DNA of 64,000 nucleotides from the NCBI RefSeq assembly GCF_963921235.1, contig NC_086108.1:19902001-19966000 (forward strand), written 5' to 3'. The DNA comes from Mobula hypostoma (Eukaryota). The position numbers and the translations under genes are program-made. The notes beneath the pieces were generated by a model. That model did no database searches. It was not told the DNA's origin and saw nothing but the letters and a program-made list of their open reading frames with translations. This document shows positions 1-48,134 of the stretch, in pieces (the first letter of the stretch is position 1; every line of letters begins with the position of its first letter).

Positions 1-679
1 TAGGGTATATGATATATCGATTACAATATATTGAAATCACATATAGAGTGTAATTACCCCATATCCATATAAAATTAAAATCCATGTAAAATTAAACTTA
101 AACATCATGAGAGATGATTTTATTATACAAAAAAAATCTAAACCCACTACCAGAAAAAAACAGCTGTTAGGTTAAAAAAAAAAGAAAAGGAAGAAATCTT
201 TAACATATAGTAAAACATATTATTAGCCAACATCTGTGCTTAATAGCAAATCAAAGATTTTGAAAATAATTCAAAAAAGGTCCCCACAATGTTAAAAAAC
301 CTTGTCTAGGTTCAGAAATTGAACAGCAAATCTTCTCTAAATTTAAGCATGACGTAACATCATTTAACCAATGAGTAGGAGTAGGCGGGGTGGCATCCTT
401 CCACTTAAGCAACAATGCCCTCCTGGCTATGAGTGAAATAAAGGCCAAAATATGCAGATCATGTGTCTCCAAAATAATATAATTTCCTCCAACAATACCA
501 AATAAGGCAGTCAAAGGATGAGGTTTAAAATTTACTTTTTACCGAAAAAGTTTGAAATACTTCCTTCCAATATTTTTCAAGACTCGGACAAGTCCAAAAC
601 ATATGGATTAATGAAACTTCTCCCTTATTACATCTATCACAAAAGGGAGATATATCCAAATAAAAACGAGACAGCTTAT

Positions 680-2992
680 ATAACCATAGAACCATAGAAA
701 CTACAGCACAGAAACAGGCCTTTTGGCCCTTCTTGGCTGTGCCGAACCATTTTCTGCCTAGTCCCACTGACCTGTACACGGACCATATCCCTCCATACAC
801 CTCCCATCCATGTATCTGTCTAATTTATTCTTAAATGTTAAAAAAGAACCCACATTTACCATCTCGTCTGGCAGCTCATTTCATACTCCCACCACTCTCT
901 GTGTGAAGAAGCCCCCCTAATGTTCCCTTTAAATTTTTCCCCCCTCACCCTTAACCCATGTCCTCTGGTTTTTTTTCTCTCCTTGCCTCAGTGGAAAAAG
1001 CCTGCTTGCATTCACTCTATCTATACCCGTCATAATTTTATATACCTCTATCAAATCTCCCCTCATTCTTCTACACTCCAGGGAATAAAGTCCTAACCTA
1101 TTCAATCTTTCTCTGTAACTGAGTTTCTCAAGTCCCGGCAACAACCTTGTAAACCTTCTCTGTACCTTTTCAACCTTATTTATATCCTTCCTGTAATTTG
1201 GTGACCAAAACTGAACACAATACTCCAGATTTGGCCTCACCAATGCCTTATACAACCTCATCATAACATTCCAGCTCTTATACTCAATACTTCGATTAAT
1301 AAAGGCCAATGTACCAAAAGCTCTCTTTACGACCCTATCTACCTGTGACGCCACTTTTAGGGAATTTTGTATCTGTATTCCCAGATCCCTCTGTTCCACT
1401 GCACTCCTCAATGCCTTACCATTAACCCTGTATGTTCTACCTTGGTTTGTCCTTCCAACGTGCAATACCTCACACTTGTCTGCATTAAACTCCATCTGCC
1501 ATTTTTCAGCCCATTTTTCCAGCTGGTCCAAAGCCCTCTGCAGGCTCTGAAAACCTTCCTCGCTGTCTACTACACCTCCAATCTTTGTATCATCAGCAAA
1601 TTTGCTGATCCAATTTACCAAATTATCATCCAGATCATTGATATAGATGACAAATAACAATGGACCCAGCACTGATCCCTGTGGCACACCACTAGTCACA
1701 GGCCTCCACTAGGAGAAGCAATTCTCTACTACCACTCTTTGGCTTCTTCCATTGAGCCAATGTCTGATCCAATTTACCACCTCTCCATGTATACCTAGTG
1801 ACTGAATTTTCCTAACTAACCTCCCATGGGGGACCTTGTCAAAGGCCTTACTGAAGTCCATGCAGACAATATCCACTGCCTTCCCTTCATCCACTTTCCT
1901 GGTAACCTCCTCAAAAAACTCCAATAGATTGGTCAAACATGACCTGCCACGCACAAAGCCATGTTGACTCTCCCTAATAAGTCCCTGTCTATCCAAATGC
2001 TTGTAGATTCTGTCTCTTAGTACTCCCTCCAATAACTTACCTACTACCGACGTTAAATTTACTGGCCTATAATTTCCCAGATTACTTTTCGATCCTTTTT
2101 TAAACAACGGAACAACATGAGCCACTCTCCAATCTTCCGGCACCTCACCTGTAGGCAGCGACATTTTAAATATTTCTGCCAGGGCCCCTGCAATTTCAAC
2201 AGCAGTCTCCTTCAAGGTCTGAGGGAACACCCTGTCAGGTCCTGGGGATTTATCCACTTTAATTTTCCTCAAGACAGCAAGGACCTCTTCCTTTTCGATC
2301 TGTACAGTTTCCATGATCTCACTACTTGTTTCCCCTAATTCCATAGACTTCATGCCAGTTTCCTTAGTAAATACAGACGCAAAAAACCTATTTAAGATCT
2401 CCCCCATTTCCTTTGGTTCCGCACATAGGCGACCACTCTGATCTTCAAGAGGACCAATTTTATCCCTTACAATCTTTTTGCTCTTAACATACCTGTAAAA
2501 GCTCTTTGGATTATCCTTCACTTTGACTGCCAATGCAACCTCATGTCTTCTTTTAGCACTCCTGATTTCCTTCTTAAGTATTTTCTTGCACTTCTTATAC
2601 TCCTCAAGCACCTTATTTACTCCCTGCTTCCTATACATGTCATACAACTCCCTCTTCTTCTTCATCAGAGTTGCAATATCCCTTGAGAACCAAGGTTCCT
2701 TATTCCTATTCACTTTGCCTTTAATCCTGACAGGAACATACAAATTCTGTACTCTCAAAATTTCTCCTTTGAAGGCTTCCCACCTACCGATCACATCCTT
2801 GCCAGAGAACAACCTGTCCCAATCCACGCCTTTTAGATCCTTTCTCATTTCTTCAAATTTGGCCTTCTTCCAGTTAAGAACCTCAACCCTAGGACCAGAT
2901 CTATCCTTGTCCATGATCAAGTTGAAACTAATGGTGTTATGATCACTGGAACCAAAGTGCTCCCCTACACAGACTTCCGTCACTTGTCCTAA
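680..2992 (-). mobile_element. 5'-truncated CR1 LINE (RT region) inserted into L1 ORF2
   Basis: [33 protein letters not shown] and KFADD motifs. One in-frame TAG at 1709-1711. (TTCTATGG)n-like tail at ~682-700. CTTAT is duplicated at 675-679 and 2993-2997. Confidence 0.95.
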
Positions 2993-5900
2993 CTTATCTT
3001 TAGACATATGGGCTCTATGAACCACTTTAAATTGTAGAAGGGAATGACGGGCCCATAAATACGAGGTATTAACCAATTTAAAAATTTCATTCCAAGTGTC
3101 CTCAGAAATTGAAATCTGTAAATCTTATTCCCAAAGATTTTAATTTTATCTAAAGGAATATTTCTCATTCCCAACAACATACCATAAATATTAGATATAG
3201 ATGCATTATGGAAGGTTTTCAAATTAAAAATTATTTCAAGTAAATTTTTTATCTGGACTTTTAGGAAATGTATGTACTTGATAATGCAAAAAGTCTCTAA
3301 TTTGTAAATATCGAAAAAAGCGAGTTCTCAGTAGGCTATTGTTCAAAATGAAGAGAGACTATCTCCAACAAACAAATATAAAAACATTTACTACCCAATC
3401 TATTCCACTCTTTAAAATCTACATCAGACATAAAAAGGTTTTAAAAAAAGTTAGAAAAAAATGGGACTGGAAAGTGAAAAACTCAATAAACCAAAATATT
3501 TTCTAAATTGTACCCAAATCCTCAAAGTGTGTTTAACTTCAAAATTATCAGTTAAATTACCTAAAGATAAAGGAATTGAGGATCCGAGAAGAGAAATGAT
3601 AGAGAATTTATTAACAGAGTTAGATTCTAAAGAAACCCAGACTGGACAGTCCTTTCGATTAGTATAATATAACCAAAACGTAAGATTCGGTATATTGACT
3701 GCCCAGTAATAAAACCTAAAATTGAGCAAGTCTAAACCTCCATTCTTTTTAGCTTTTTGAAGATGAACTTTATTTAATCGAGTAATTCTATTTTTCCAAA
3801 TGTAAGAAGATATAATAGAATCCAAAGAATCAAAAAAGGAATAAAAACAGGTATGACCTGAAATAAATATAAAAATTTAGGCAAAATATTCATTTTAATG
3901 GAATTGATTCGGCCAATCAATGATAAAGAGAGGGGCAACCAATTTGAAAGTGCCTTCTTAACATAATTCAGGAGTGTAAAAAAATTTCTTTGAAAGGTAA
4001 TTTATAATTCCTAGTAATTGTTACGCCCAAATGAGTAAATTGATTTCTTACAATTTTAAAAGGAAAGTTAGTATTAACTAATACCAAATTATTCAAAGGA
4101 AAAAGTTCACTCTTATGAGTTAAGTTTATATCCTGAAAACTGACTAAAGCAGGAGAGTAAAAAAAGTAGAGAAGGTAAAGAAGACACCACATTAGAAGTG
4201 TAGAACAAAAGGTCATCAGCATAAAGCGAAACTTTGTGGGTAATACCCCTCCTTAAAATACCAGTGATATCATTAGATTCTGGGAAAGCAATAGCTAAAG
4301 CTTCTAAGACCAAATCAAAAAGCAAAGGACTCAAAGGACAACCTTATCTAGTTCTACGATGAAGTTTAAATGGTTTAGAGTACTGAGAGTTAGTAAGAAC
4401 CTGAGCGGAGGGAGATAAGTAAAGTAATTTAATCTATTGAATAAAATCAGGCCCGAAGTTAAGTTTTTCTAAAGTTTTAAATAAATAATTCCAGTCAACC
4501 TGATCAAAGGCTTTCTCAGCATCTAAGGATATTACACATTCTGAAATCTCTTTAAAGGAGAATAAATAACATTCAATAAACGATGAATATTAAAGTGGAA
4601 GTATCGAATTTTGATAAATCCAGTCTGATCATCAGAGATAATAGATGGCAAAATATTTTCAATCCTACGAGCCAAAAGTTTAGATAAAATTTTAGTATCA
4701 ACATTAAGTAAGGAAATAGATCTATAAGAAGAGCATTAAATTGGGTCCTTATTCTTTTTAAGAATAAGCAAAATAGAGGCTTCATAAAAAGATTGTGGCA
4801 ACTTACCTAATTTAAAAGAGTCGGAAAGGACTGAATATAAATGAGGTATAAGCAAAGAGGGGAAAAAAGCCTTATAAAACTCTCCAGAAAATCCTTCAGG
4901 ACCCGGAGCCTTCCCCGAGTGCAAAGAGTGAACAACCCCAGCAATTTCCTCAAAGAAAATAGGTTGATCCAACAATTTTCGAATATCATCAGAAAGTGTA
5001 GGAATGTTTAATCAATCTAAAAATTATTCATTAGAGTAAAATTATTCTTTAGGAGGATCAGAACTATAAAGTTTAGAGTAGAATTCTCTAAAAGCATTGT
5101 TTATTTCTAAATGATCGGATGTTTTATCACCATTAGCTTTACAAATTTCTTTAAGTTGATGTTTAACTATAAAGATGTTTAACTGGTTTGCTAATAGTTT
5201 ACCCGTTTTATCTCCATGAATATAAAACTGACTTTTATCTTTTAAAAGTTGCATTTGAATTGGGTAAGTTAAGAGCAGATCGTATTTAGTTTCAATTTCA
5301 ACACTTCTTTTATATAAAACAGGATCTGGAGTCAAAGCATGTTTTTGGTCTAATTGTTTCAACTGATTGGCTAATTCAATTCTCCCCTTATTAGCTTTTT
5401 TCTTAACACTTGCGGTAAAAGAAATAATTTGACCTCTAATAACAGCCTTAAAAGCATCCCATAAAATAAGACTAGAAGTCTCTTCCAGGGTATTCTCTTC
5501 AAAAAAAAAATCTGTCTCTCCAAAAATTTTTTTAAATCTTTATCTGATAACAAAGTTGGATTAAAACGCTAGAATCTGTTTATTTGGGAGATACCCGGAA
5601 GATTTAAAGATAAAAACACAGCAGCATGATCTGAAACAGCAATTTCTTTATATTCACAGGATCAAACTAATGGAATCAATTGGCTATCAACAAAAAAATA
5701 ATCAATCCTGGAATACGCATGATGAACATGAGAAAAAAATGAGTACTCTTTATCTGTTGGATGCAAAAAACGCCAAATATCCACAATATCACATTTCATT
5801 AGAAAAGATTAGATAAAGGAGGCAGATCTACTACAAGTCAATCATTTAGAAGAAGAACAATCAAAAACAGGATCTAAACAACAGTTGAAGTCTCCTCCTA

Positions 5901-6909
5901 AAACCAAAGAATATAAACTTAATTCTGGTAAAAGTGAAAAAAAATGTTCAGAAGAGCCTGGATCATCTATATTCGGGGCATACAAATTAGCAAAAACCAT
6001 TAATTTATAATCTAATTTCCCTGAGACTATAACAAAATGCCCATTGCTATCAGACACTACATTATGTTGAACGAAAGAAACTGAATTGTCTATAAGAATC
6101 GAAACTCCTCTTGCCTTAGCCTGAAAGGAGGTATGGAAAGATAAATCCTTCCAACAGCTGAAAAGACGTAAATTATCACATTTACGAACATGTGTTTCTT
6201 GTATAAGAATAATTGAGACATTCAATTTCTTAATATAATTAAATATCTTATTACGTTTCACAGGATGGTTTAATCCTTTCACATTGAAAACTAAGTAAAT
6301 TAAAAATATGGTCCATTTTAAATATTGCTTAAAGGAAATGTTTTAATAAAAACTGCTGGAATATATTAAATCCACACAATGAGTTTTAAGAAAAAGTAAC
6401 CAAGCAACAAATGAAGCTATGAGAGCCAAACAGCTGATAGAAAAGAAGAAAACCACCCCAACCCCCACCCAAACAGAGAAAATCGACCAAAGGGCAGTCG
6501 CCAGCTAATCCTACCATTCCCTCTCAAAACAATCTACTGGCTGAGCTCCAAAAAAAAAAATTCAAGGCAAAATTGCATTCCAACAAGACACAACAAAAAA
6601 CAGAGCAAAATTAAACATATTTTATAAACCTCATAAAAAATTATAGTATAAAATATTAGAAAGAAATATGAAAGTTCAAAACATATTAATTTAGAAAGTA
6701 TTAACTCAAAGAAAACTTACTAATACTAAATCCTTAATTTTCTAAACAAGGAAATAAAAGTACAAAAAAATTAGATACGTAGGTATACCAAAAGTTAAAA
6801 AAAACAATTGTTCATAAAAGAAAGTAATGAACAGTTAGACTGCTGATTCTAAAAAAGAGGATCCATCAGGCAGATGCAACATAAATTTGTGTAAAGAGTT
6901 ATTGGACAG

Positions 6910-7722
6910 TTAAACTTCTGAAATTGATTTGGCACTCAAGAAATCCTGCACCTCTTGAGTCAAACGGAACCATCTTTGAGAGCCAGTTTTCAAAATGATT
7001 CTAAGACGAGTGGGGTGATGAAGAGAGGGTTTAAAACCTTTATTATACAGCTCAGACAAGACTTTTTTAAACTTGAAATGTTCATTAAACACCTTGGGTG
7101 AAAAATCTTCCACAATTCTGAACTTCTGGTCCTCATAATCAATCATACCTTTCCGACAAGATTCACAAATTAAAAGTTCCTTTGTTTGAAAGTCGTGAGG
7201 ACAAATTATCATTGAACAGAGTCGTCCTTCCAGGGGAGGTCTCAGTACAGGCAACCTGTGAGCTCGGTCTATTTTAGGTGGAGATTTTAAAATATTCGGA
7301 AATAAATTAGCCAACAGGTTTGCAAAAAATTCCGAAGGCTGATTGCCTTCCAATGACTCTTTAAAACCCAGAATACGTAGATTATTTCTTCTGATTCTAT
7401 TTTCTAAGTCGATAATCTTCTGCCTTAATGTTTCATTAACCTTTAACTGTTTATCACAGATCTGTTCCAGGTCGTCAATCTTCGTGTTGAACGTCGTCAA
7501 AGTGTCTTTATTCTCTTTTATCTGTTTATCGTGTTCACTTAAAGTTTTTTTAATAGACTCCAATTTTTCATCCATCTGTTTAAATTCAGAGCTGAGTTGC
7601 TGGAAGTCCTCCGAAAGTTCATTTTTATGCTTCTGAAGTGTCACCATAATAGATTCCAAAGTTACAAGAGGGTCCTCTTTTTTAGTAGCTTTAGCACGAC
7701 TCATCATAAAGCAATATTGCAT
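6910..7722 (-). CDS. L1-type ORF1p (coiled coil + RRM + CTD, Transposase_22-like), 270 aa
   Basis: Heptad-rich N-terminus, then LENRIRRNNLRILG, IDRAHR and RIVEDFS motifs. Confidence 0.88.
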   Translation of the reverse strand: MQYCFMMSRAKATKKEDPLVTLESIMVTLQKHKNELSEDFQQLSSEFKQMDEKLESIKKTLSEHDKQIKENKDTLTTFNTKIDDLEQICDKQLKVNETLRQKIIDLENRIRRNNLRILGFKESLEGNQPSEFFANLLANLFPNILKSPPKIDRAHRLPVLRPPLEGRLCSMIICPHDFQTKELLICESCRKGMIDYEDQKFRIVEDFSPKVFNEHFKFKKVLSELYNKGFKPSLHHPTRLRIILKTGSQRWFRLTQEVQDFLSAKSISEV

Positions 7723-21735: not shown

Positions 21736-22739
21736 TGGTGGTGTTGAGTTACCCAAGTGTTGGTTGAAGTATACAATGAAATTGAGAATTGGTTAGTTAA
21801 TTTAGAAGACTGAGTTATTGTCTCAAAAGATTTATATTTCCATTTTGGAAGTTACCAGAACAGCAAATGTGTTGCTAATGAAGCAGCATTGCTTATGCAG
21901 TGCAATGGAACAACAGTCTTGTTTCTATCACTTGCTTTTTCATAAATAGAAAATATTTTAAAGATTCTATTGACTGTACGGAAGGAAAGCAGATGAGTTG
22001 AGTATTTAAAATGTATTAGTACATCTCTGAAATCTGAAACATTGCATATGTGAAACAAGAAGCAAGTAGAAATTGTATATATTGAATTAGATTTTTCTTA
22101 AAATAAATCTTTTTGAAAGCCCTTTGTACCCTTGTTTTTGAGCCAGTGTTGATGCTGCTGTTAGTCTATGTTCTGGGAAGTAAATACAAACATAAAATGT
22201 TGGAAGCAATCAACAATTCAGCCATCATCTGTGGAAAGAAATCTGCTGAGTATTTCCAATATTTTGCCTAGTATTCAGTTTGTAGCATCAAATGTTTTTT
22301 GATTGATGAAAAACAAGGTCAGCAGCCACTTAAAGTTTCTTAATTTCTCTAGGTCAGAGGAGAGAATGAGTGGAAAGAATGTGTGTACTTTTGAGTTCAA
22401 AATAATTTGAGATGATCTTCATACTTTAATATATTTTTAAATGTTTTGGCTGACGTAGGATTGATCAGCTGGAATAGTGGTACTGTAGCATGAGAGAGAG
22501 CTGAAACCAGGCAATGTTGTCTCAGGCTAAAGATTTACTAATTAGGACTGTGATGAAAGGAAATCCCTTCACTTAAATGGTTGGATCTTTGGAATTCATC
22601 TCCCCAAAGAATTGAGTATCTTTACTGTTGAGACAAATGGATTTTCAATGGTAGCACAGGAGAAGATTGATACAAAAGATCAGCCATGTCTTTTTTGGAG
22701 GTTAGACCTTAATATTTCCAGCATTTTCTTATTTAGATT

Positions 22740-25700
22740 TCCACTGGCTGCGGTTATAACTAATAATCAAAAATTTCCTTACTTTAGATTATACAGAGAT
22801 ACTCGGCAGGGATATCTTCTTATCCCTTTATTATTTAACTTGTCTTTAGAGCCCCTTGCTATTGCTCTTAGAGATTCCAATACTGTTCAGGGTATTAAGA
22901 GAGGGGACAAAGTACACAAGGTTTCATTGTATGCAGATGACCTGTTAGTTTACATTTCAGATCCTAGGAAATCTATTCCTTCTATGCTATCTATATTTTC
23001 TGAATTTAGTTGTTTTTCTGGATATAAATTAAATTTACATAAAAGTGAGTTATTTCCCATTAATAATTACTCAGATCAGTATCATCAAGTACCTTTTAGT
23101 ATTGCTAAAATTACTATATTTATCTTGGTATTAAAATTACTAAAAATTTTAAGGACCTGTATAAATATAATTTTCTCCCATTAATTGATTACACCCAACA
23201 AATGCTTTCTAAATGGTCACCTATGACATTATCATTAATAGGTCGAATTAATGCTATTAAAATGGTAGTTCTACCAAAATTCTTATATATACATTTCAGG
23301 CAGTTCCTACCTTTGTTTCTTGATAGAATAGATTCTATAATCTTATCTTATATTTGGAATAATAAAAATCCTAGATTGAATAAACCTTTAGTACAGAAAT
23401 TAAAAAAGGATGGTGGTATGGCTTTGCCAAATTTTAGAATGTATTATTGCGCAATTAATATTCGATATATTACTTTTTGAATTCATTACTCAGACATACA
23501 TGAATGTCCTTCATGGTTGGATTTGGAGGAAAACTTGGTGAAGGGGTTCTCTTTGGCCTCTTTACTGGGAGCTCCTCTTCCCTTTTTGTTTTCTAAGATT
23601 AGTAGTCAAGACTTTAATCCTATTATTAAACATACTTTAAGAATTTGGTTTCAGTTTTGTAGATTTTGAGTTAAATAATTCTGTTCTTTTTAGTAATAGC
23701 CATTTTAATTATTTTTTTAAACCATCAATCTTGGATAAGACCCTTTTAATTTGGAAAACCAAGGGGATAACAACTTTTTTCAGATTTGTTTTTACGGGAC
23801 TGTTTAATGTCTTTTTCTCAGTTAGTGGATAAATATAATTTACCTAATGAACATTTCTTTAGATATTTACAAATTAGGAATTTTTTACATGATTTGCTGC
23901 CAAATTACCCTTCTGTTTATCCACCTAATATGACACATGCTCTTTTTCAGCTTAAACCACTTCAGAAAGGGTTGATAGCTATAATTTATAAACGGATATT
24001 GAATTTACAAATGATATCTAAAGATAAAATTAAATGTGCTTGGGAATTGGAAGTTCAAGAGTCATTTTCAGATAATCAGTGGAGTAAAATTCTTCATTTG
24101 GTTAATAACTCATCTACTTGTGCCCGTCATTCTTTGTACAGTTCAAGGTAGTGCATCGGGCCCATATGTCAAATGATAAACTAGCACGTATTTTTGCCAA
24201 CATCAAACCTATTTATGACAGATGTAATAGTGAGGTGGCCACTTTAACTCGTATGTTTTGGTCTTGTATAAAGCTAGACAATTTTTGGAGTGATGTTTTT
24301 AAAACATTATCAAAAGGCTTGGATCTGGACCTACAACCTAATTTACTTATGGCAATATTTGGGATTACCCCATTGAAACCAGGAAATATACATTGAGCAG
24401 AAACAGGAATGATAGCATTTTCAACTTTATTGGCTAGGAGAGCCATTTTACTGAAGTGGAAGGATTCTAATCCACCTATTGTCTTTTATTGGCTTTCCTC
24501 CATTATGTCTTGTCTAAGTTTAGAGAAAATAAGAAGTCGGACATTTGATACATCCTTTAAATCAGAGCAAATCTGGCGACCTATTATTCAGTATTTTCAT
24601 TTAATTTAATTTACTACTCTTCCAATTTTTTTTGAAGTTTTAGATTTGATCAGAAAGTTTTTTTCTTTTTTTTTTGGTTGTATCCTCAGAATGGACTGCC
24701 AGTCCCTTTTCCTTTTTTTGTATAGTGTAGTGGGGGTCTTTTTTTCCCTTCATTTAAAATTCTTTCTTTTTAAATCTTTTTATTGAGTAAGTATACAAAA
24801 AAGGTAAGCCATATAAACATTAATACAATGTTAAAGTATAATAAAATTCCAAAAGATATCGATACCAAAAAGAAAATACTACAAACAATGTAATTTAAGC
24901 ATAAGAAACCAAGATAACATAATAGTATACTAAATTTTATATATATCAATGGAAAAAAAAAGAAAAAAAAACCCCCAAAAAAAAACCCACCGTGCAGCTA
25001 ACTAAAAGCAAAGCAAAGCAATGGGCTAACTTGAAACCAAACAGAGTTAAACTTAAAATCACGTCCTCAATCCCGACCTCCATTAAAAACAGTGAAAAAA
25101 AAACAAGAAGGGTAAATATTACATTAAATGAAAATATCGAATAAAAGGTCCCCAAATCTGTTCAAATTTAAATGAAGAATCATAAAGGTTACTTCTAATT
25201 TTCTCCAAATTCAAACATAAAATCGTCTGAGAGAACCAAAAAAAGGTAGTTGGAGCATTAAGCTCTTTCCAATGTTGTAAAATACATCTTTTCGCCATTA
25301 AAGTAAGAAATGCAATCATTCTACGGGCTGAAGGGGAAAGATTACTAGAAATTTTAGGTAGTCCAAAGATAGCAGTAATAGGGTGAGGAGAGATATCTAT
25401 ATTTAATACCTTAGAAATAATATTGAAAATATCTCTCCAAAAAGTTTCCAAAGTAGGGCAAGACCAAAACATATGAGTTAAAGAGGCTATCTGCCCCGAA
25501 CATCTATCACAGAAAGGATTAATATGCGAGTAAAAACGCGCTAACTTATCTTTGGACATATGTGCTCTATGAACCACTTTAAATTGAATTAGGGAATGTT
25601 TAGCACAAATAGAGGAAGTATTAACTAATTGTAAAATCTGCCCCCAATCATCCACAGAAATGGTAAGCCCCAAGCCCTTCATTTAAAATTCAAAGTTTTT

Positions 25701-30339: not shown

Positions 30340-30895
30340 GGTCTAGGCCCAGAGTGTATCGATGTGGCAGGGTCCGTGAGGAATGATTTAAAATGACGGG
30401 CCAGGTGGATTGAAAAGGCAGGATGTCAGAACCAGAAGTTAGGCTGGTTCTGCTTGCTGCTCCGCGATATTTACTCTGCTTTTCACTGAACTGAGGCTGA
30501 GACCTGCTCTGGGTGCTCCGGGCTTCGTGTCTGTGGGCTCTGTGATGTTTACTCTATTTGCTGTTCCGGGCTTCGTGTCTGTGGGCTGTGTGATGTTTAC
30601 TCTATATGCTGCTCCAGGCTCCGTGTCTGTGGGCTCTGTGATGTTTACTCTATATGCTGCTCCAGGGTTTGTGTCTGAGACTGACTTTCATTTTAAATGC
30701 TATTTGCTTACTTTTATTGTTTGCATGATTTGTTTTCTCGCTGTCTGTCTCTGTCTCTCTACATTGCATGTTTGTTTTTTTTTGTGGGCTCTTTTGAGTT
30801 TCTTGTCTTGTGGCTGCCGGTAAGGAGACCAACCTCAAGTTTGTATAATATGTACATACTTTGATAATGTAATTTGAACTTTAAACTTTGAACCT
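30340..30895 (+). mobile_element. SINE-like retroposon with internal minisatellite and (TTTGAAC)-type tail
   Basis: 3' end (gtacatactttgataat...tttgaactttaaactttgaacc) resembles the Rex-type LINE tails elsewhere in the window. Confidence 0.55.
30515..30677. repeat. 48-bp tandem repeat, ~3.4 copies
   Basis: Unit gctccgggcttcgtgtctgtgggctctgtgatgtttactctat(a/t)tgct starts at 30515, 30563, 30611 and partially at 30659. Confidence 0.92.
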
Positions 30896-33979: not shown

Positions 33980-36484
33980 TCGACTAAAGCTCAGCGTTTA
34001 ACAGAATTATCCCATCCTAATCAAGGTTAAAGACCTGGACCTCTGGACCTCCCTCTGCAAATGAATCTTCAATTTTCTCATTGGGACCTCAATCAGTGTG
34101 GATTGGTAATGTCTCTTCCTTGCTGACCATCAGCACAAATGAACCTCAGGGCTGCTGTGTGGTTAGACCCTGTACTACTTGCTATACTCATGCTAAACAC
34201 AACTCCAATGCCAACAGCACACTGATGGACAGGACACCTGGTTGAGTGGTGCAGGAACAACAACCTCTCAATGTCAGTTAAGGGAGATTGGCATATTACC
34301 GAACATTCTATCAAACTTCTAGATGGACTTGAAAGACTCATATCATGGTCTGGTAGGGCAATTGATATTGCAAAGGAATGCGAAGAGCTACAGAGAGCAG
34401 TGGACTCAGCCCAATATATCGCAAGAACATCCCTCCCACCATTGGTAGTATCTGTGAGACACTACCCCAAGAAGGCAACATCTATCATCAAAGATTCCCA
34501 ATATGTAGGCCATGCTATCTTCTTGCAGCTACCATCGGGCAGCAGGTTCAGAATCCCAAAGTTCCTCATCATCAGGTTGAAGAACAACTGCTTTCCTTGA
34601 ACCATTCAGTTTTTGATCCAACTAGGACAACTGTATTCACTACAGTTTAGCAATACTCTGACCACTTTGATCAGAGTCAGGTTTATTATTATCACTGACA
34701 TGGTTTGTGAAATTTGTTGTTTTGTGGCAGCAGTACAGTGCAATGCATTAAAATACTATCAGGTATAATTAAAAAAATATAAAAAATAAATAAATAGTGC
34801 AAAAGGGGCAAAATATTGAAGTAATGTTAATGGATCCAAGCATCATTCAGAAATCTGATGGCAGAGGGTAAGAAGCTATTCCTAAAATGTTGTATTTGTG
34901 TCTTCAGTCTTCTGTACCTCCTCCCTGATGGTAGTAATGAGAAGAAGACGTGTCCTGGATGGTGAGGGTCCTTAATGATGGTCCAGAGGCCAGTGCCCAT
35001 GATGAAGTTGACTGAGTTTATAACCCACTGCAGCTTTTTCCAATCCTGTGCAGTGGGGCCTCCATACCAGACAGTGAGAATGCAACCAGTCAGAATGTTC
35101 TCCACAGTACATCTATCAAAATTTGCTAGAGTCTTTGGTGACATACCTAATCTACTTAAACTCCTAATGAAATGTAGTCATTGATCAATCGCTACTGAAG
35201 TGGACTTTGTTTTTTTGTGTTCCAATTGTGTACTATCTTGTAAAATTTGTGTGTATGTTTTTCTTGTGATGCTGTGTGACAATGATGCTGTTGCAAGTAA
35301 GTTTTCAATGCACCTGTGTATATATGTATGACAATAATCTTGATTTTAACTTTTGAAATAATTAGATGTTGGAGTTTAGAAAGAAGAAAGCATAATACGG
35401 ATCTTGAGGGAGTTGTAAGTTTTCCTGTAGCGGGATAAGGAAAACTTTGAGAATCTATCTTTATTGGGCAGTAGAAGAGCCAAATTTTAAAAACACTTAA
35501 AAATTTTAAAATGGCAAAAATGTGGAAAGAGATGAATCACGAAAGAGACTTGGCAGGAAGCTCAGACACCTCAGCCTGCACGCCACCTTTTGCAGCTGGA
35601 TCCTGGACTTCCTTTCGGATCGCTGACAGGTGGTAAGGATGGACTTCCCTACCTCTGTCCCACTGACCTCAACACAGGTGCCCCCCAGGGTTGTGTCCTG
35701 AGTCCCCTCCTCTACTTCCTTTATACCCATTTCTGTGCTGCCACACATAGCTCCAGTCTGCTGAATAAATTTGCAGATGACTCAACATTGATCGGACTTA
35801 TTTCTAACGGTGATGAGACAGCCTAGAGGAGAGGTTTAACACCCTGACGCAGTGGTGCCAAGAGAACAACCTCTCCCTCAGTGTACAAAAAACAAAAGAG
35901 CCGATCGTGTTTTACAGGAGGAACGGAGACAGGCTCACCCCAATCAACATCAATGGAACTGTAGTTGAGAGGGTGAGTAGTTTCAAGTTCCTTGGATACA
36001 CATCACCGAAGATCTCACTGGACTGTACACACCAAGTGTGTGGCAAAAAAAAACGCAACAGCGTCTCTTCCACCTCAGATGACTGAAGAAGTTCGGCATA
36101 AGCCCCCAAATCCTTCTACAGGGGCACCATTGAGAGCATCTTGACTGGCTGATCACCGTCTGATAAGGGAACTGCACCAAACTTGATCACTGGGCACCGT
36201 AGAGAGTGGTACGGACAACCCAGCGCATGTGAACTTCCCTCCATTGAGGATATTTACAGCAGCAGGTGTGTAAGGAAGACCTGGAAGATCATTGGGGACA
36301 CCAGTCACCCCAACCATAAACTGTTTCAGCTGCTTCTGTCTGGCAAATGGTATCGCAGCATTAAAGCCAGGATCAACAGGCTACGGGACAGCTTCTTGCT
36401 ACGAGCTATTAGACTTATAAATTCTCATGTCTGTACGTTGTGACTCCCTCATGTTGTGGAACAGATTTAAATAAATTCAAATTC
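33980..36484. mobile_element. Cluster of Rex1/Babar-like LINE fragments (+ 33980-34670, - 34675-35185, + 35550-36484)
   Basis: NTGAPQGCVLSPLLY...KFADD, LLPSGRRYR, HPNHKLFQLLLSGKWYRSIKAR; the last copy has an (AATTCA)n tail. Confidence 0.85.
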
Positions 36485-37037
36485 TTTTTTTTTAAAATTT
36501 TATTTTTATTTGGATAAGGAATTCACAATTATCACGTACTTTTTTCACACATATAACCTTTTCCATTTTTTTATATGTATAAAACTACAATTATTTATAC
36601 ATTCTTAAGTACACATTGAGATGATATAAAAGGAAAATAAACATTTAAATAGATAATTATGTACTGTGGTAAATCTAACCTATTAGGCTAAGTAAAGAAA
36701 TTAGTTGTTAAGAAAAATGGTAATAATAGTTTCCATACAACCCTTCTGGACCATTTCCACTGGTCCAAAATGTTGCATACAAGCCTATATACCAACCATT
36801 GTAGGTGTTTATATCCCAATTTGTTCGTGCTTGTTCCTGCCCGCAGATATAATTATCCAATCCCTATGTACTTATTTACTTAATTTTTTCTTTTTTTTTT
36901 ATCCCTTTCCCAAATCTTTCCCTTTACTTGTGTTAATTCTCTATTTTCCAAAAAAAAAACAAACATTTAGACTAGGGGTGCTTACGTTAGCAATATTACT
37001 GTGTGGATGAGAAGAGCAATATAAATCATTAGGAGAG

Positions 37038-37886
37038 TCATCTAAAGTCTGCTCGCATTGGGATTATATATTCAATCCATTTATTCCAGATTTGATAAAA
37101 TGTTTCTTTTTGAGTTCTCAGGGAGTAAGTCAACTTTTCCATTTTAAATATTTCCAAGATAATTTTGTACCAATCTTCTAATGTAGGTGGTATTGGATTT
37201 AGCCATTTTCTAGTGATTGATTTCTTACTTGCCGCTAAGAGGGCCTGCAGCAACTTTATATCTTCCTTCTGTTCAAGGAACAATACATGCCCCAAATAGA
37301 GCGTCTCAAAGTTCAGAGGTATCTGGGACCTAAGTACCTTAACTAATATTCTATGAATACCTTCCCAAAATAGACTTAATTTAGGGCAATCCCAGAAAAT
37401 ATGAAAATGATTTGCCTCCTTGGAGCCGCACCTTCTCCAACACATCACATTTGTATCTTTATATTTTTCCTGATATGGGGTCTTGAAGTATCTTGTAATG
37501 TTTTTCCAACAATGTTCTCTCCAAGTCAAAGAATTAGTCGAGGACCATTGAAAGCTGCAGATTTTCCCCCAAGCCTCCTCTGAAAGTACCAACCCCGCTT
37601 CTTTCTCCCACTTCTCTTTAATATACGTGTCATTAAGGTCTAGATATTCTTTGATTTCTCCCCTTAATCTCTCCATTACTTTCGGGTTATTGAGTATATG
37701 TGAGTTTAGCCTCCATAGTGTTTTCCTCATTTTCCTTTCCAGGATTAGAGACATAGAGACTAGGCTATGATCTGACAGATCAATTGTTGCAATATTACAG
37801 TTTTTTATCCTGAGTCTATCTGTATTAAAGATAAAGAAATAGTCTATCCTTGAATAGGCTGAATGAGGGAAAGAGTAATATGTATA
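37038..37886 (-). CDS. L1 ORF2 continuation: end of endonuclease fused directly to C-terminal CCHC domain (RT absent)
   Basis: SRIDYFF...LSDHS, then EYLDLNDT|YIKEKWEKE, then CWRRC...HIFWDC. No YADD motif. Confidence 0.88.
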   Translation of the reverse strand, partial: YTYYSFPHSAYSRIDYFFIFNTDRLRIKNCNIATIDLSDHSLVSMSLILERKMRKTLWRLNSHILNNPKVMERLRGEIKEYLDLNDTYIKEKWEKEAGLVLSEEAWGKICSFQWSSTNSLTWREHCWKNITRYFKTPYQEKYKDTNVMCWRRCGSKEANHFHIFWDCPKLSLFWEGIHRILVKVLRSQIPLNFETLYLGHVLFLEQKEDIKLLQALLAASKKSITRKWLNPIPPTLEDWYKIILEIFKMEKLTYSLRTQKETFYQIWNKWIEYIIPMRADFR

Positions 37887-37984
37887 ATAGAAACATAGAA
37901 ACATAGAAAATAGGTGCAGGAGTAGGCCATTCGGCCCTTCGAGCCTGCACCGCCATTTATTATGATCATGGCTGATCATCCAAC

Positions 37985-40984
37985 TCAGAACCCAGCCTTC
38001 CCTCCATACCCCCTGACCCCTGTAGCCACAAGGGCCATATCTAACTTCCTTTTAAACATAGCTAATGAACTGGCCTCAACAGTTTGCTGTGGCAGAGAAT
38101 TCCACAGATTCACCACTCTCTGTGTGAAGAAGTTTTTCCTAATCTCGGTCCTAAAAGGCTTCCCCTCTATCCTCAAACTGTGACCCCTCGTTCTGGACCT
38201 CCCCAACATCGGGAACAATCTTCCCGCATCTAGCCTGTCCAATCCCTTTAGGATCTTATACGTTTCAATCAGATCCCCCCTCAATCTTCTAAATTCCAAC
38301 GAGTACAAGCCCAGTTCATCCAGTCTTTCTTCATATGAAAGACCTGCCATCCCAGGAATCAATCTGGTGAACCTTCTTTGTACTCCCTCTATGGCAAAGA
38401 TGTCTTTCCTCAGATTAGGGGACCAAAACTGCACACAATACTCCAGGTGTGGTCTCACCAAGGCCTTGTACAACTGCAGTAGTACCTCCCTGCTCCTGTA
38501 CTCGAATCCTCTCGCTATAAATGCCAGCATACCGTTCGCCTTTTTCACCGCCTGCTGTACCTGCATGCCCACTTTCAATGACTGGTGTATAATGACACCC
38601 AGGTCTCGTTGCACCTCCCCTTTTCCTAATCGGCCACCATTCAGATAATAATCTGTTTTCCTATTTTTGCCACCAAAGTGGATAACTTCACATTTATCCA
38701 CATTAAATTGCATCTGCCATGAGTTTGCCCACTCACCCAACCTATCCAAGTCACCCTGCATCCTCTTAGCATCCTCCTCACTGCTAACACTGCCACCCAG
38801 CTTCGTGTCATCCGCAAACTTGGAGATGCTGCATTTAATTCCCTCATCCAAGTCATTAATATATATTGTAAACAACTGGGGTCCCAGCACTGAGCCTTGC
38901 GGTACCCCACTAGTCACCGCCTGCCATTCTGAAAAGGTCCCGTTTATTCCCACTCTTTGCTTCCTGTCTGCTAACCAATTCTCCACCCACACCAATACCT
39001 TACCCCCAATACCGTGTGCTTTAAGTTTGCACACTAATCTCCTGTGTGGGACCTTGTCAAAAGCCTTTTGAAAATCCAAATATACCACATCCACTGGTTC
39101 TCCCCCATCCACTCTACTAGTTACATCCTCAAAAAATTCTATGAGATTCGTCAGACATGATTTTCCTTTCACAAATCCATGCTGACTTTGTCCGATCATT
39201 TCACCGCTTTCCAAATGTGCTGTTATCACATCCTTGATAACTGACTCCAGCAGTTTCCCCACCACTGACGTTAGGCTAACCGGCCTATAATTCCCCGGTT
39301 TCTCTCTCCCTCCTTTTTTAAAAAGTGGGGTTACATTAGCCACCCTCCAATCCTCAGGAACTAGTCCAGAATCTAACGAGTTTTGAAAAATTATCACTAA
39401 TGCATCCACTATTTCTTGGGCCACTTCCTTAAGCACTCTGGGATGCAGACCATCTGGCCCTGGGGATTTATCTGCCTTCAATCCCTTCAATTTACCTAAC
39501 ACCACTTCCCTACTAACATGTATTTCGCTCAGTTCCTCCATCTCACTGGACCCTCTGTCCCTTACTATTTCTGGAAGATTATTTATGTCCTCCTTAGTGA
39601 AGACAGAACCAAAGTAATTATTCAATTGGTCTGCCATGTCCTTGCTCCCCATAATCAATTCACCTGTTTCTGTTTGCAGGGGACCTACATTTGTCTTTAT
39701 CAGTCTTTTCCTTTTTACATATCTATAAAAGCTTTTACAGTCCGTTTTTATGTTCTCTGCCAGTTTTCTCTCATAATCTTTTTTCCCCTTCCTAATTAAG
39801 CCCTTTGTCCTCCTCTGCTGAACTCTGAATTTCTCCCAGTCCTCAGGTGAGCCACTTTCTCTGGCTAATTTGTATGCTACTTCTTTGGAATTGATACTAT
39901 CCCTAATTTCACTTGTCAGCCACGGGTGCACTACCTTCCTTGATTTATTCTTTTGCCAAACTGGGATGAACAATTGTTGTAGTTCATCCATGCAACCTTT
40001 AAATGCCTGCCATTGCATATCCACCGTCAATCCTTGAAGTGTCATTTGCCAGTCTATCTTAGCTAATTCACGTCTCATACCTTCAAAGTTACCCCTCTTT
40101 AAGTTCAGAACCTTTGTTTCTGAATTAACTACGTCACTCTCCATGTTAATGAAGAATTCCACCATATTATGGTCACTCTTACCCAAGGGGCCTCTCACGA
40201 CAAGATCGCTAATTAACCCTTCCTCATTGCTCAAAACCCAGTCCAGAATAGCCTGCTCTCTAGTCGGTTCCTCGACATGTTGGTTCAAAAAACCATCCCG
40301 CATACATTCCAAAAAATCCTCTTCCTCAGCACCTTTACCAATTTGGTTCACCCAGTCTACATGTAGATTGAAGTCACCCATTATAACTGCTGTTCCTTTA
40401 TTGCACACATTTCTAATTTCCTGTTTAATACCATCTCCGACCTCACTACTACTGTTAGGTGGCCTGTACACAACTCCCACCAGCGTCTTCTGCCCCTTAG
40501 TGTTACGCAGCTCTACCCATACCGATTCCACATCTTCCCGGCTTATGTCCTTCCTTTCTATTGCGTTAATCTCTTTTTTAACCAGCAACGCCACCCCACC
40601 TCCCCTTCCTTCATGTCTATCCCTCCTGAATATTGAATATCCCTGAACGTTGAGCTCCTATCCCTGGTCACTCTGGAGCCATGTCTCTGTGATCCCAACT
40701 ATATCATAATCATTAATAACAATCTGCACTTTCAATTCATCCACCTTATTACGAATGCTCCTTGCATTGACACATAAAGCCTTCAGGCGCTCTTTTACAA
40801 CTCTCTTAGCCCTTTTTAATGCTTGCCCTGGATTTGTCGGCCTGCCACTTTTACTTTTCCCCTTTGTACTTTTTGCTTCTACGCTCACTTTACACCCCTC
40901 TGTCTCTCTGCACTGGTTCCCATCCCTCTGTTGTGAACTAACCTCCTCACACCTAGCCGCTTTAATTTGATTCCCACCCCCCAA
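37985..40984 (-). pseudogene. CR1 ORF2 (APE endonuclease + RT), ~999 codons with one premature stop
   Basis: [37 protein letters not shown] and KFADD motifs. ORFs 40658-40984 and 37985-40594 are in the same frame. Confidence 0.93.
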
Positions 40985-40989
40985 CCATT

Positions 40990-41323
40990 CTAGTTTAAAG
41001 TCACCTCAGTAGCCCCCGCTAATCTCCCTGCCAGGATATTGGTCCCCCTAGGATTTAAGTGTAACCCGTCCTTTTTGTACAGGTCACACCTGCGCCAAAA
41101 GAGGTCCCAATGATCCAAAAACTTGAATCCCTGCCCCCTGCTCCAATCCCTCAGCCACGCATTTATCCTCCACCTCATCGCATTCCTACTCTCACTGTCG
41201 CGTGGCACAGGCAGTAATCCCGAGATTACTACCTTTGCGGTCCTTTTTCTCAACTCCCTTCCTAGCTCCCTATATTCTTCTTTCAGGACCTCATCCCTTT
41301 TCCTACCTATGTCATTGGTACCT
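40990..41323 (-). CDS. CR1 ORF1 C-terminal SGNH/GDSL esterase-like domain fragment
   Basis: IGTNDIG (block III) and DGLHLN (block V, DxxH). Confidence 0.85.
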
Positions 41324-41893
41324 ATCTTTACTAGTAGGGTGTAATTCCCTCCAGACATCTATAATTCCCAACTCTTCCATCAATGAATTCACTTTCCGAG
41401 TCAGAGGTTTATTCTGAGTAACTATTCTTGAAGAATCTAATATAGGATTTAATCTAATATTAAAATCCCCTCCACAAATTACTACCCCTCGAGAACTGAC
41501 CATTAGGTCAAAAATGTGTCTATAAAATGACCATTCACTACCTGGAGGAGCATAAACATTCAGCAATGTTATTTCTGTACCTTCTATTCTTCCTGTGATT
41601 TTTACAAACCGTCCTTCTTTGTCTCTAGTCTCTGAAATATGTTCATAATTAAGAGTACTTGATATTAAAGTAGCTACCCCTCTTTTGTGACTCAATTTAT
41701 ATGATGAATAAAATATATGCTTAAAGCCCATTCTTTTTAATTTTCCATGTTCAGATTGGCTCATATGTGTTTCCTGGAGGAAAGCTATTTGTGCCCTCTC
41801 TTTTTTCAATTTAGACATAATCTTATTTCTTTTAATTGGATTCAAAACCCCATTAACATTATAGGGAATTATTTTTACCAATTCAGTTTGCAT
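41324..41893 (-). CDS. L1 ORF2 N-terminal APE endonuclease (first 190 codons, cut by CR1)
   Basis: YNVNG, FLQETH, NVYAPP, GGDFN and DVWR motifs. Confidence 0.9.
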
Positions 41894-42255
41894 TTTTCTC
41901 TAGTAGAAAAAAAGCACTCTCCTTTTCTAACCAAACAGTAAGCAATCCCTTCTCAACAGTAAACCAAGACATATAACCACACCCTAGACATTTCTGAACG
42001 TATAACATTTGAAAATTTTTCCCGACTTCACACAGTGAGGCCTGAGCACCGACCCGCCTCAGTTCAGAGGGATAACCTCTATCTTCACCCTGTGTTAGAG
42101 GGCCCTCAGCAGTTTGAATAATCATAGAGACTTTTCTCCTATTTATGTCTCGACCATATTGCTATCATTCAAGTTATTCCGCCTAGTTTATTTTCAGTTA
42201 CCAGTTTTCATTTTACTTTTAAGTCCGATTTACTCTTTTCAGTCATTTCTCTTAA

Positions 42256-43242
42256 TTAATCTGTATTCTCTGTACATTCGCGTCTGAATATTTGCAGCTT
42301 TTCCTTGTAGTTTGACACTCTGGTTCGAGTGGAGCGTCCTCGCCCCACTAACTGCCACGACTTCTGCCGAATCCTCTCCAGTAGCGACTCTGGTTGGGTG
42401 ATAACTTTAATAGGTAGTCCCCGGTCCGCCAGGTCCAACGTTGCCTCCTCTACCGTAGCGTAAGTTTTTGTCCCTTCGTCGTAAAAGACTCTCAGCCGAG
42501 CTGGATACAGGGTCTGGAATCTGATGTTGTTTTCCTTCAGGACTCTCCGTGTTTCCGTATATTCCTTCCGTCTGGCAAGAATCCCCGGTGCGTAGTCGCG
42601 GTCTAAACTGATTTTGCAGTTGTTCCACATGAAACCTTTCTTTTGCCATGCTCTTTTAAGCACCTCTTCCTTCGTTCTGTAACTGAGAAATCTGATCAGA
42701 ATCGATCTGGGCTGGGCGCCTGCCGGAGGCTGTGGTGCCAACGCGCGGTGAGCCCTTTCTATCTGTAGGTCTTTTGCGGCCGGTATATCAAGGTTCTCTC
42801 TAAGCAGCTTCTCCACGAAGGGAATCATCAATCCGGGTTTACCTTCGGTTCCTTCGGGAACTCCGTAGATCCTCACATTTTCCCTTCTTGAGCGGCCTTC
42901 TTGATCTATTAGTTTCCACTGGAGCTGGTCTTGTAGCTTCAGCATTTCTGCTATCACTTCCTCGGCGTTTTGTAGCTTCTCTTCAATTCCAACAATCCTC
43001 GCTTCGGCTTCATCTATCCACGAATTAGTTTTTACTATTTCTCCTTTAATATCTTCCAGCTGTTTGCTGTTATCTTGTCGGAACTCGCGAATCTCTCCGA
43101 GAATCAAAGACAGAGTCACCGATTCCCCCTCATTATCTCCGTCCTGGCTTGCCGTGGGGGAGCTAGGCCCGTCGCCTTGCTGCATCCCTTTATGTTTATC
43201 AGCCTTCGAAGCGGACTTTTTATTCTTGTTCTTAGACATCAT
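42256..43242 (-). CDS. Intact L1-type ORF1p, 328 aa
   Basis: Coiled coil, EGRSRRENVRIYGVPEG, IERAHRAL and YPARLRV motifs; no stops. Confidence 0.92.
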   Translation of the reverse strand: MMSKNKNKKSASKADKHKGMQQGDGPSSPTASQDGDNEGESVTLSLILGEIREFRQDNSKQLEDIKGEIVKTNSWIDEAEARIVGIEEKLQNAEEVIAEMLKLQDQLQWKLIDQEGRSRRENVRIYGVPEGTEGKPGLMIPFVEKLLRENLDIPAAKDLQIERAHRALAPQPPAGAQPRSILIRFLSYRTKEEVLKRAWQKKGFMWNNCKISLDRDYAPGILARRKEYTETRRVLKENNIRFQTLYPARLRVFYDEGTKTYATVEEATLDLADRGLPIKVITQPESLLERIRQKSWQLVGRGRSTRTRVSNYKEKLQIFRRECTENTD

Positions 43243-43929
43243 CCTTGCCCCTTTTATTAATATAGTTATGCAATATTAAGTATTTGTCTAAATTCGATTT
43301 TGGGGCAGTTTACCTTCTGTTTTGTCGAGAGACCTTTTCCTTACGCCGCCATTCCCTTGATGACCCGGAAGTCAAATAAATTCAAATTCAATACATAATA
43401 AATACTTTACTAACATGTTAGAGAAAACTTCACACCCTATTTTCATTAGAACTGGCAAAGAACAGCAAGATTGTTCCAATCCAAATACTGATGAGGGAAC
43501 TGCATGAAGCTATATTGTTAACTAACTTTTTAATTGAGATACAACAGAGCTCTTCATTATGAATACATTGATTGGCATAATTTTAATGCGTTGTGAGATA
43601 GACAATGCTCTCAGATAAGGTTGTTGTTAAGACTTTATATTTTGCCTTCCCCCTCTCCATTCTTGCGCTCCTGGGTATTGTAGATTTCATGCCATCGTAT
43701 GAAAACTTAAACATTGATGGGAAAGAGACACAAAGAAACATGTGCTGCTTTATATTGTAATACATGTGCAACCCTGGTGCAAGGCCTGTCTTTATCCTAT
43801 TCTAATCACTCAAAATTAATGAGTCTATCTAAATGTCTCAAATGATAAGGAAGCAATTCACCATTATAAGTGCATTGATTACTTCATTTCCCCCCAATTG
43901 TAACATGGTATTGTATTGCATCGAACAAT

Positions 43930-46280: not shown

Positions 46281-46642
46281 GTTATTTTAAGTCTTCTGTC
46301 TGTTATCCTTTGTATCCTTCTGGCTATTCTTTCTATAATTGTGTCAATGAACACTATCAGTGATTATCCTGAGTATGTGCTAAAGGGAATTCATTGATAA
46401 AGTGACTTGTTCTATTTCTGTCTGCAATCCACACTAGCGCTCTTCTGTTCCACCTTCTTGTATGGATTTTGAGCTGCTTGATGATGGATTTTGCAGTAAG
46501 GTGTTGTGACTGGGGCAAGTAACCTGCCATAGATTTGTGTATTGTTTCAAAATGATGGAAAATTAATATTAACGTTGCACAGTGTTGAACTGATTGCAAA
46601 TGATGTGTAAATTTGATAAGAAATGTTCTTTTCTTTTCTCAG

Positions 46643-47216
46643 GTGTATCAGTGTCTGCCCAGGAGAGATCAGAATGGATGTCACGAGCCGATGTACGCTC
46701 GGCGATCCCAACAAGCTGCCTGAGGGTGTACCTCAACCAGCTAGGATGCCATTTGTATCAGACAAGCATCCCCGACAGACTTTAGAAGTGATTAATCTTC
46801 TGAGGAAGCACCGGGAACTCTGTGATGTGGTACTGGTTGTGGGTGCAAAAAAGATTTATGCACATCGAGTTATCTTATCTGCCTGCAGCCCTTACTTCCG
46901 AGCCATGTTCACTGGTGAGCTTGCAGAAAGCCGGCAAACGGAGGTAGTGATTCGTGACATCGATGAGCGAGCTATGGAGCTTTTAATTGACTTTGCATAC
47001 ACGTCTCAGATAACAGTAGAAGAGGGGAATGTACAGACCTTGCTGCCAGCAGCTTGCCTCCTGCAGCTGGCTGAGATCCAAGAGGCCTGCTGCGAGTTCC
47101 TGAAAAGACAACTTGATCCCTCCAACTGCCTAGGGATCAGAGCTTTTGCTGACACCCACTCCTGCAGAGAACTGCTCCGCATTGCTGACAAATTCACTCA
47201 GCACAACTTCCAAGAG
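46643..47216 (+). CDS. KLHL20: KLHL20 exon encoding the BTB domain and start of BACK (574 bp; first in-frame ATG at 46674)
   Basis: [26 protein letters not shown]...[31 protein letters not shown]...FTQHNFQE is near-identical to human KLHL20 as recalled. Acceptor ttctcAG at 46641-46642; donor GTAAGG at 47217. Confidence 0.97.
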
Positions 47217-48134
47217 GTAAGGGCTAATGAAAAGGGACAAGGTTCACATTTTCTCTGTGCATTTAAACTTAAGTAGTGGCCCCCATGACACTGCCGCATT
47301 TGTTCCATGTTCACAATTGAATGTTCATGGTGCAGTAAAATTGGTTGTTGTCAATTTAATTATTTTGAAATCAATTTTTGCTTGCAACTTTTAATGGTAA
47401 GTAGGTGAGGTAATAGAATTATTTTATTTCTTGGAAAATGGAAGCTGAAGAGTGACTTGTGAATGTATAAGAATGGATCTCTTGAATATCTACTAGATAT
47501 TTCTGCCAGTGATTTTCAATGGTGGAAGCCCCTGCACAGTGGTGGTGGCTGGGATCTTCAGAAAATTGATCCAGTCCATGCCACCAGATTTGCTGTACTA
47601 CATGCATCTCAACTAGTTAACATACTGCACTGAACATGTTTTGACAATAATAGAGTATAGGCATGCTTTTGTGATTTCAGATAGTTCCCAGACATGGCTA
47701 TGCCTCTGATTTATTATTTTAAGGCAGTGATGAGCGAACACCGTTCAGTTTCTGATTAGGGAAGGGAATTTAAAGGTTTTGTTATCTGGGTATTTGGGTA
47801 ACCTTTGAGTAGTGCAAAGCATTCCTTTGCCATAAGCTACCTACGTTGCATAATGTCTGGTTAGTGGGAAATGGAGAGGAATTGGAAATCATTGTATCTA
47901 TTAAATTCCATTGCATTTCTCTGCTTTCCATTATATAAAAGCCTTATTTAAAATCTGCAGAAATCAAAAACGAGTATCTCACTTGAAAAGAATTACTCTC
48001 CTCTTGTCTCTTGACATAAGCTATTCATAAAATACCCATTGAGTTTGTTCTCCTTTCCTTTCTGAATCAAGCCTTCACACATGTTGGTAGGACAATGGTG
48101 TCTTGCTCAAATGACCATTCTTTATATGTGATAA

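Follow-up and report, generated by a model that had tools for sequence, protein, structure and literature searches.

The stretch analysed here, called the window throughout, comprises 64,000 nucleotides of the Mobula hypostoma genome (NCBI RefSeq assembly GCF_963921235.1, contig NC_086108.1, positions 19,902,001 to 19,966,000 of the forward strand). Window positions 36469-43389 hold a minus-strand L1-type element with a copy of a 16-bp target-site duplication (TSD) at either end. The element is interrupted by a nested CR1-type long interspersed nuclear element (LINE), and its second open reading frame (ORF2) lacks the reverse transcriptase (RT). Below we describe the element, its relatives and its representation in public sequencing runs, and weigh whether the RT-less form is a single broken copy or a member of a non-autonomous family, the two options raised in an earlier note on this DNA.

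Structure of the element

The TSD copies lie at 36469-36484 (3′ end of the element) and 43374-43389 (5′ end). They match at 16 of 16 letters, and within the window the 16-mer occurs at these two places only (chance ~5e-5 in a 100x100 flank search). Public reads were consulted as contigs of four runs (X1, X5, X9 and X10) among 24, X9 coming from organism B and X10 from organism C; all joints, loose ends and differences reported from them are those among the matches listed. One X1 contig (record 8, depth 12.8) runs from unique flank into the 5′ end of the element with 0 differences, so that the insertion is real.

All parts of the element lie on the minus strand. From its 3′ end they begin with a 9-nt A-tail (36485-36493) behind AATAAA-type signals and a 544-bp 3′ untranslated region (UTR; 36494-37037) between the ORF2 stop codon and the tail, which family contigs cover in all four runs. 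The ORF2 C-terminal domain (CTD) with its stop codon (37038-37625) shares 68-75% identity with the last ~197 aa of the related proteins P0001-P0003, and its zinc knuckle C-x3-C-x8-H-x4-C is intact (motif at residue 339). The deletion junction at 37626 is followed by the end of the endonuclease (EN), with its RIDY and SDH motifs, and the start of the linker/baseplate (37626-37886; 94% identity to residues 134-219 of protein P0037). Beyond the nested CR1 (37887-41323) lie endonuclease residues 1-190 (41324-41893; Pfam Exo_endo_phos, E 1e-9; 95% identity to P0037 over its overlap), a 362-bp spacer, and ORF1 (42256-43242), which encodes 328 aa with no internal stop. ORF1 is 40% identical to the frame upstream of the full ORF2 in L002 and has a Pfam match to Transposase_22 at E 0.003, below the cut-off. 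A 131-bp 5′ UTR (43243-43373) extends to the family 5′ end, where family depth stops at the edge in X1 and X9. The perfect 16-bp TSD, the 5′ end and the intact 328-aa ORF1 reported previously thus hold in all coordinates, and the poly(A) tail is present too, at 9 nt only.

ORF1, an APE endonuclease and an L1-type C-terminal CCHC motif were found together with an A-tail and a TSD within 7-20 bp at an A/T-rich nick. The bottom strand at the nick reads ATTC/AA, compared with a consensus of TTTTT/AA (PMC8565326). The full ORF2 with RT that marks an autonomous L1 is lacking: 790 codons are gone and neither L1 piece contains RVT_1. By every tested feature except RT, the element is an L1-clade copy. 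It resembles the fish-type L1 clade, which includes protein P0092, in its Transposase_22-like ORF1, APE endonuclease and C-terminal CCHC; full-length members of that clade have an RT, whereas the window copy is without residues 278-1067.

An in-frame deletion in ORF2

Excision of 37887-41323 by script joined 190 and 282 residues into a frame of 472 aa with a single terminal stop and left an element of 3,452 bp, matching the earlier size of ~3.45 kb. In the actual genome sequence a stop within the CR1 closes the endonuclease frame after 193 aa, which makes the 472-aa protein a reconstruction only; the stop-free ORF2 described previously exists when the CR1 is removed and not in the genome as it stands. 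The locus would now be unable to make this protein, its products being at most the ORF1 protein (ORF1p) and a 193-aa endonuclease stub without the C-terminal catalytic motifs.

The join at 37626 falls between residues T277 and Y278 of the 472-aa frame. Relative to four full-length relatives (P0037, P0001, P0002 and P0003), exactly 790 codons (2,370 nt) are missing, in frame, and the region lost (residues 278-1067) comprises the tower, RT and wrist. The earlier reading that the endonuclease linker runs into the C-terminal region near 37626, with the RT gone and the frame kept, is confirmed by this comparison. Because the same 790 codons separate the two sides in all four relatives, the intact parent element would measure ~5.8 kb. 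Pfam searches of the two L1 pieces recovered an endonuclease from the 5′ one and an RT from neither; the sole RT in the element region is that of the CR1. In human ORF2p numbering (tower 239-440, baseplate 254-300, wrist 863-1061; PMC10830420), the left breakpoint lies inside the baseplate, just ahead of the conserved ILWD motif. Contigs from both sides claim base 37626, a shared G, and the join therefore has 1 nt of microhomology.

The loose end in X10 shows that the removed stretch starts with GG under either placement of the shared base, which bears on whether the missing sequence was an intron spliced from L1 RNA before insertion, an event that could recur at other loci. Spliced insertions (SpIREs) make up ~2% of annotated full-length primate L1s (PMC5860796), and they share with the window copy an internally deleted, 5′-complete, dead-on-arrival structure. 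SpIREs are, however, cut at splice sites in the 5′ UTR and ORF1 (PMC5860796), whereas this deletion lies in ORF2 and opens with GG, not with the GT or GC of a splice donor. Its 3′ end, as deduced from the P0037 protein only and not from DNA, would fall in a Leu codon before Tyr and so could not end in AG. Splicing is accordingly a very improbable origin, and we do not class the copy as a SpIRE.

Two 5′-truncated relatives begin near the right breakpoint: L003 (2347-2780) starts ~3-4 codons upstream of it, and the match of L004 (~1763-2312) starts within ~10 codons. As a weak hint, and subject to a possible query bias, these 5′ starts could mark a site at which RT stalls, which would be another cause of a tidy break.

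The parent family and its relatives

The closest protein found was P0037 (XP_072114005.1, Mobula birostris by its NCBI label). It is 94% identical to the window copy over 217 aa on the endonuclease side, also matches on the C-terminal side, carries RVT_1, and is the sister of the window copy in the endonuclease tree (100/98). By this comparison, the parent family carries an RT. P0037 is a near-complete ORF2 annotated as HMG-CoA reductase isoform X1, a label that would be either an error of annotation or the result of an L1 included by read-through in a transcript of the HMG-CoA reductase gene.

P0037 is 71-72% identical to P0001 and P0002 over ~1,057 aa, 62-63% to Amphiprion proteins and 52% to P0092 (source label O93521_ORYLA), which we take to be the Oryzias element 'Swimmer'. 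Its family is only 32-41% identical to an older ray L1 in the same window. The young family nests among teleost-type L1s, with an identity that is high for the ray-teleost split, and there are hints of a horizontal transfer of the family into rays.

A set of 304 proteins was assembled from a full HMMER scan together with three word-index searches. The first 155 were mapped on a full-length ORF2: 87 were complete, 67 were contiguous partial copies, and one had EN and CTD without RT. A profile over all 304 flagged a single protein of the latter kind, P0035. It was rejected as an EN-CTD fusion, since its ORF2 pieces are out of order, with a duplicated block, ORF1 in mid-protein and a scrap of the thumb, as in a stitched gene model. 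Four proteins with phmmer stretches over the junction (P0194, P0273, P0275 and P0299) mapped wholly to the C-terminal region of a full-length ORF2, and P0277 has just a gap of ~60 residues downstream of the RT. A search centred on the junction gave seven matches, all of them C-terminal fragments. Eight related loci on metagenome contigs consist of two full ORF2s and six 3′ fragments, which are ~70% relatives belonging to other families. Overall, a genuine EN-CTD fusion was found in 0 of the 304 proteins and 0 of these eight loci, collections in which animal repeat ORFs are thinly represented.

Family copies in public sequencing runs

The CR1-free joint, 37886 to 41324, was present in contigs of X1 (summed depth 7,102) and X10. 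Since the joint occurs in both, the CR1-free join made in the earlier note corresponds to the normal sequence of the family, of which there are many copies. In X1 its summed depth compares with 12.8 for the flank contig (185-555 fold); summed contig depths are no copy number and are read here merely as 'many copies'. These contigs bear on a composite origin, in which an L1 shell with the nested CR1 as its substitute EN-RT module would move as a 6.9-kb unit. The CR1 does lie on the same strand as the L1, and its ORF2 is nearly open, with one stop at 40658-40660, near its start, and 890 aa open after it. The abundance of the CR1-free joint in X1 and X10 stands against such a unit, as do the CR1 contigs, which run past 41322 into the CR1's own 5′ sequence, the stop near the start of the CR1 ORF2, and the frequency of nested CR1s here, another of which sits in an old L1 at 250-7700. 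We consider this origin highly implausible.

At the deletion junction, X5 record 19 (depth 322.5) matches 37115-37626 and continues unbroken for 118 letters unlike the window, which are presumably RT-side sequence. From the 5′ side, two X10 contigs depart at 37626 and read G-E-T-S as in P0037, the normal linker. In neither X5 nor X10 is the form with the deletion junction in the majority. No contig among those listed spans the junction at 37626, and an exact 30-base junction probe had 0 matches in metagenome contigs, a collection that need not contain this animal. The missing span could in principle be an assembly error, and the lack of a listed spanning contig speaks in favour of one. A collapse, however, needs repeats at both ends, where here there is one shared base, and X1 record 8 reproduces the 5′ flank junction letter for letter; an assembly error is thus a quite improbable explanation.

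Summed depth steps from ~83,000 to 212,000 across the junction, again read as 'many copies' and no more. X5 is without cover at 37627-37847 (bin depth 52.5, from record 19 alone) and at 41544-42071; a filter can cause such gaps and they are not used as evidence. In X10, depth is far higher at 37685-37879 and 42600-42863 (512, with 2,358 in one bin) than over the remaining L1 (70-160), a pattern that may be library bias or an amplified fragment.

The family is also abundant in X9, where a flank contig (record 32) carries 11 differences and one gap in 528 letters. Its match ends exactly at the TSD edge, 43374, and is followed by 80 unlike letters, a pattern that would be expected of an empty site without the insertion, as judged from one listed piece. 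The insertion thus seems to be absent from a relative that is ~2% diverged.

Age and selection

Compared with the window copy, five long X5 contigs show 12 differences in 1,678 letters (0.7%), and five organism C contigs 48 in 2,259 (2.1%). At 0.7% divergence the probability that 2,400 coding nt contain no stop is 0.43-0.49, falling to 0.13-0.15 when frameshifts are included at an assumed 0.07 per substitution. With only ~0.7% divergence between the copy and the family majority, its open frames are unsurprising.

Eleven private coding sites, at which at least 98% of X1 depth reads the other letter, were drawn from 40 of 412 differences; seven further coding sites that segregate among copies were scored and excluded, and differences in non-coding sequence and in the CR1 were left unscored. 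Seven of the private changes are non-synonymous and four synonymous (five of six non-synonymous in ORF2), where neutrality predicts ~70% non-synonymous. Their likelihood is 0.20 at an omega of 1, 0.22 at 0.5, 0.033 at 0.2 and 0.002 at 0.1. By these counts the private changes look neutral, as drift predicts. At near-invariant positions of the clade, for example P232 (conserved in 12 of 12 relatives) and H193 (in 11 of 12), the copy alone differs; of the eight positions of this kind, some may be family-wide and not private. A long RT-less lineage under selection would not fit these divergence and substitution figures.

Origin of the RT-less copy

We conclude that the deletion is probably a one-off event and the element a young, dead copy of an ordinary RT-encoding L1 family. 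Of the two options in the earlier note, this is the one that gains support, from the RT-bearing P0037, the contigs that leave the junction, the youth of the copy and its neutral private changes. This ray lineage carries many copies of a young, RT-encoding L1 family of ~5.8 kb; a full-length transcript was inserted here by target-primed reverse transcription, giving the TSD, the tail and the 5′ end. Then or later the copy lost 2,370 nt of ORF2, in what was presumably a single event joined at one shared base. A jump of the RT along the RNA during insertion is very slightly preferred as the route over end-joining repair of a later DNA break; microhomology-mediated and non-homologous end joining heal aborted L1 intermediates (PMC2912911). 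The frame would have survived by a 1-in-3 chance and the ORFs would be open through youth (~0.7%). The CR1 entered the endonuclease before or after the deletion, and the locus would have drifted neutrally and have no present function.

Internally deleted single L1 copies are a close parallel: they share the canonical TSD, the tail, the 5′ end, a deletion joined by microhomology and neutral decay. The window copy differs in that its deletion is 2.37 kb, carries no inversion, is in frame and ends near a domain border, whereas the L1 internal deletions described in 10.1101/2024.08.27.596794 are short (median 14.5 bp) and tied to 5′ inversions.

Several observations weigh against a one-off event. 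On the right, the break (residue 1068 of 1262 in P0002) comes only a few residues away from where wrist and CTD meet in human ORF2p (PMC10830420), and with all endonuclease catalytic motifs, the knuckle and the frame kept the deletion is tidier than most random ones. The one-off status is judged from the listed contig paths, and Logan contigs drop minor paths, so that a minority RT-less subfamily would be missed. ORF1 depth is ~0.3-0.8 of C-terminal depth in all four runs, which a short 5′-complete form would fit too. Finally, the private changes amount to 11 sites only, and changes after insertion are neutral in every copy, whether or not it belongs to such a family.

These points would suit a minor non-autonomous subfamily with ORF1 and an EN-CTD fusion, a recent offshoot mobilised in trans by the RT of the autonomous family, whether or not the fusion protein is needed. 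In its favour are the retention of both ends and ORF1 together with frame and motifs, the position of the break near the wrist/CTD border and the fairly high ORF1 depth. Internally deleted non-autonomous LINEs do exist, in the form of SIDEs (PMC3414825, PMC6740152) and HAL1 (PMC5753468), and fragments of human ORF2p that carry EN and RT separately can work together (PMC4889948). On the other side, the majority paths in X5 and X10 avoid the junction, which hence does not predominate there; the copy, with no excess of synonymous changes, lies just 0.7% from the RT-bearing majority; no such fusion occurs among the 304 proteins; and SIDEs of non-long-terminal-repeat elements are called rare (PMC6740152). 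Such a subfamily is unlikely on balance. Slightly less likely still is its most specific version, a young mobulid RT-less L1 subfamily with ORF1 and with EN fused in frame to the zinc-knuckle domain at a natural border, whose members would nick targets, bind their own RNA in cis and borrow RT only, from full-length partners. The non-autonomous family of the earlier note, with ORF1, EN and CCHC, thus receives no positive support, yet is not refuted.

HAL1 is likewise derived from L1, with ORF1 kept and no RT, but HAL1 elements encode ORF1p only and form families (PMC5753468), while the window copy retains EN and CTD coding sequence and is for that reason not a HAL1. SIDEs (R2 SIDE, Persaeus) also have LINE 5′ and 3′ ends joined by internal deletion; they are short, multi-copy and spread in trans (PMC3414825, PMC6740152), whereas the window copy is 3.45 kb long, keeps ORFs and is known from one locus. 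No RT-less L1 family with ORF1, EN and CCHC is described in the titles and abstract openings searched, a body of literature with Repbase and most subscription journals outside its scope.

As a single broken copy, the element is a marker of an L1 family in rays that is young and was recently active. Were the junction to prove multi-copy, it would define a non-autonomous LINE that keeps endonuclease and CTD, and a natural test of splitting ORF2p functions between molecules; the cis-acting version, if true, would be a naturally split ORF2p system able to evade the cis preference of L1.

Nested CR1 and neighbouring features

The nested element (37887-41323, minus strand) has an esterase ORF1 within which it is 5′-truncated, an EN-RT ORF2 and a short 3′ repeat, with Pfam matches to Lipase_GDSL_2, Exo_endo_phos_2 and RVT_1; the run contigs show both the joint and loose ends at 41322. 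No real TSD was found around it, the two sides sharing 2 letters only. These features would place it in the CR1 clade.

An exon encoding BTB-BACK of a kelch-like host gene, presumably KLHL20-like, lies at 46620-47276 on the plus strand; the L1 is antisense to it and ~3 kb upstream. The L1 is probably intronic in this gene, of which an upstream exon was not found with two short motifs. Elsewhere in the window, ~250-7722 on the minus strand is occupied by an older full-length L1 that belongs to another family, carries frameshifts and has its RT; its CTD is split by a nested CR1 (~680-3000). Two decayed, 5′-truncated L1 fragments of the older type lie tail to tail at 22546-24600 (plus strand) and 25119-25682 (minus strand), and a minisatellite with a 48-bp period lies at 30514-30677.

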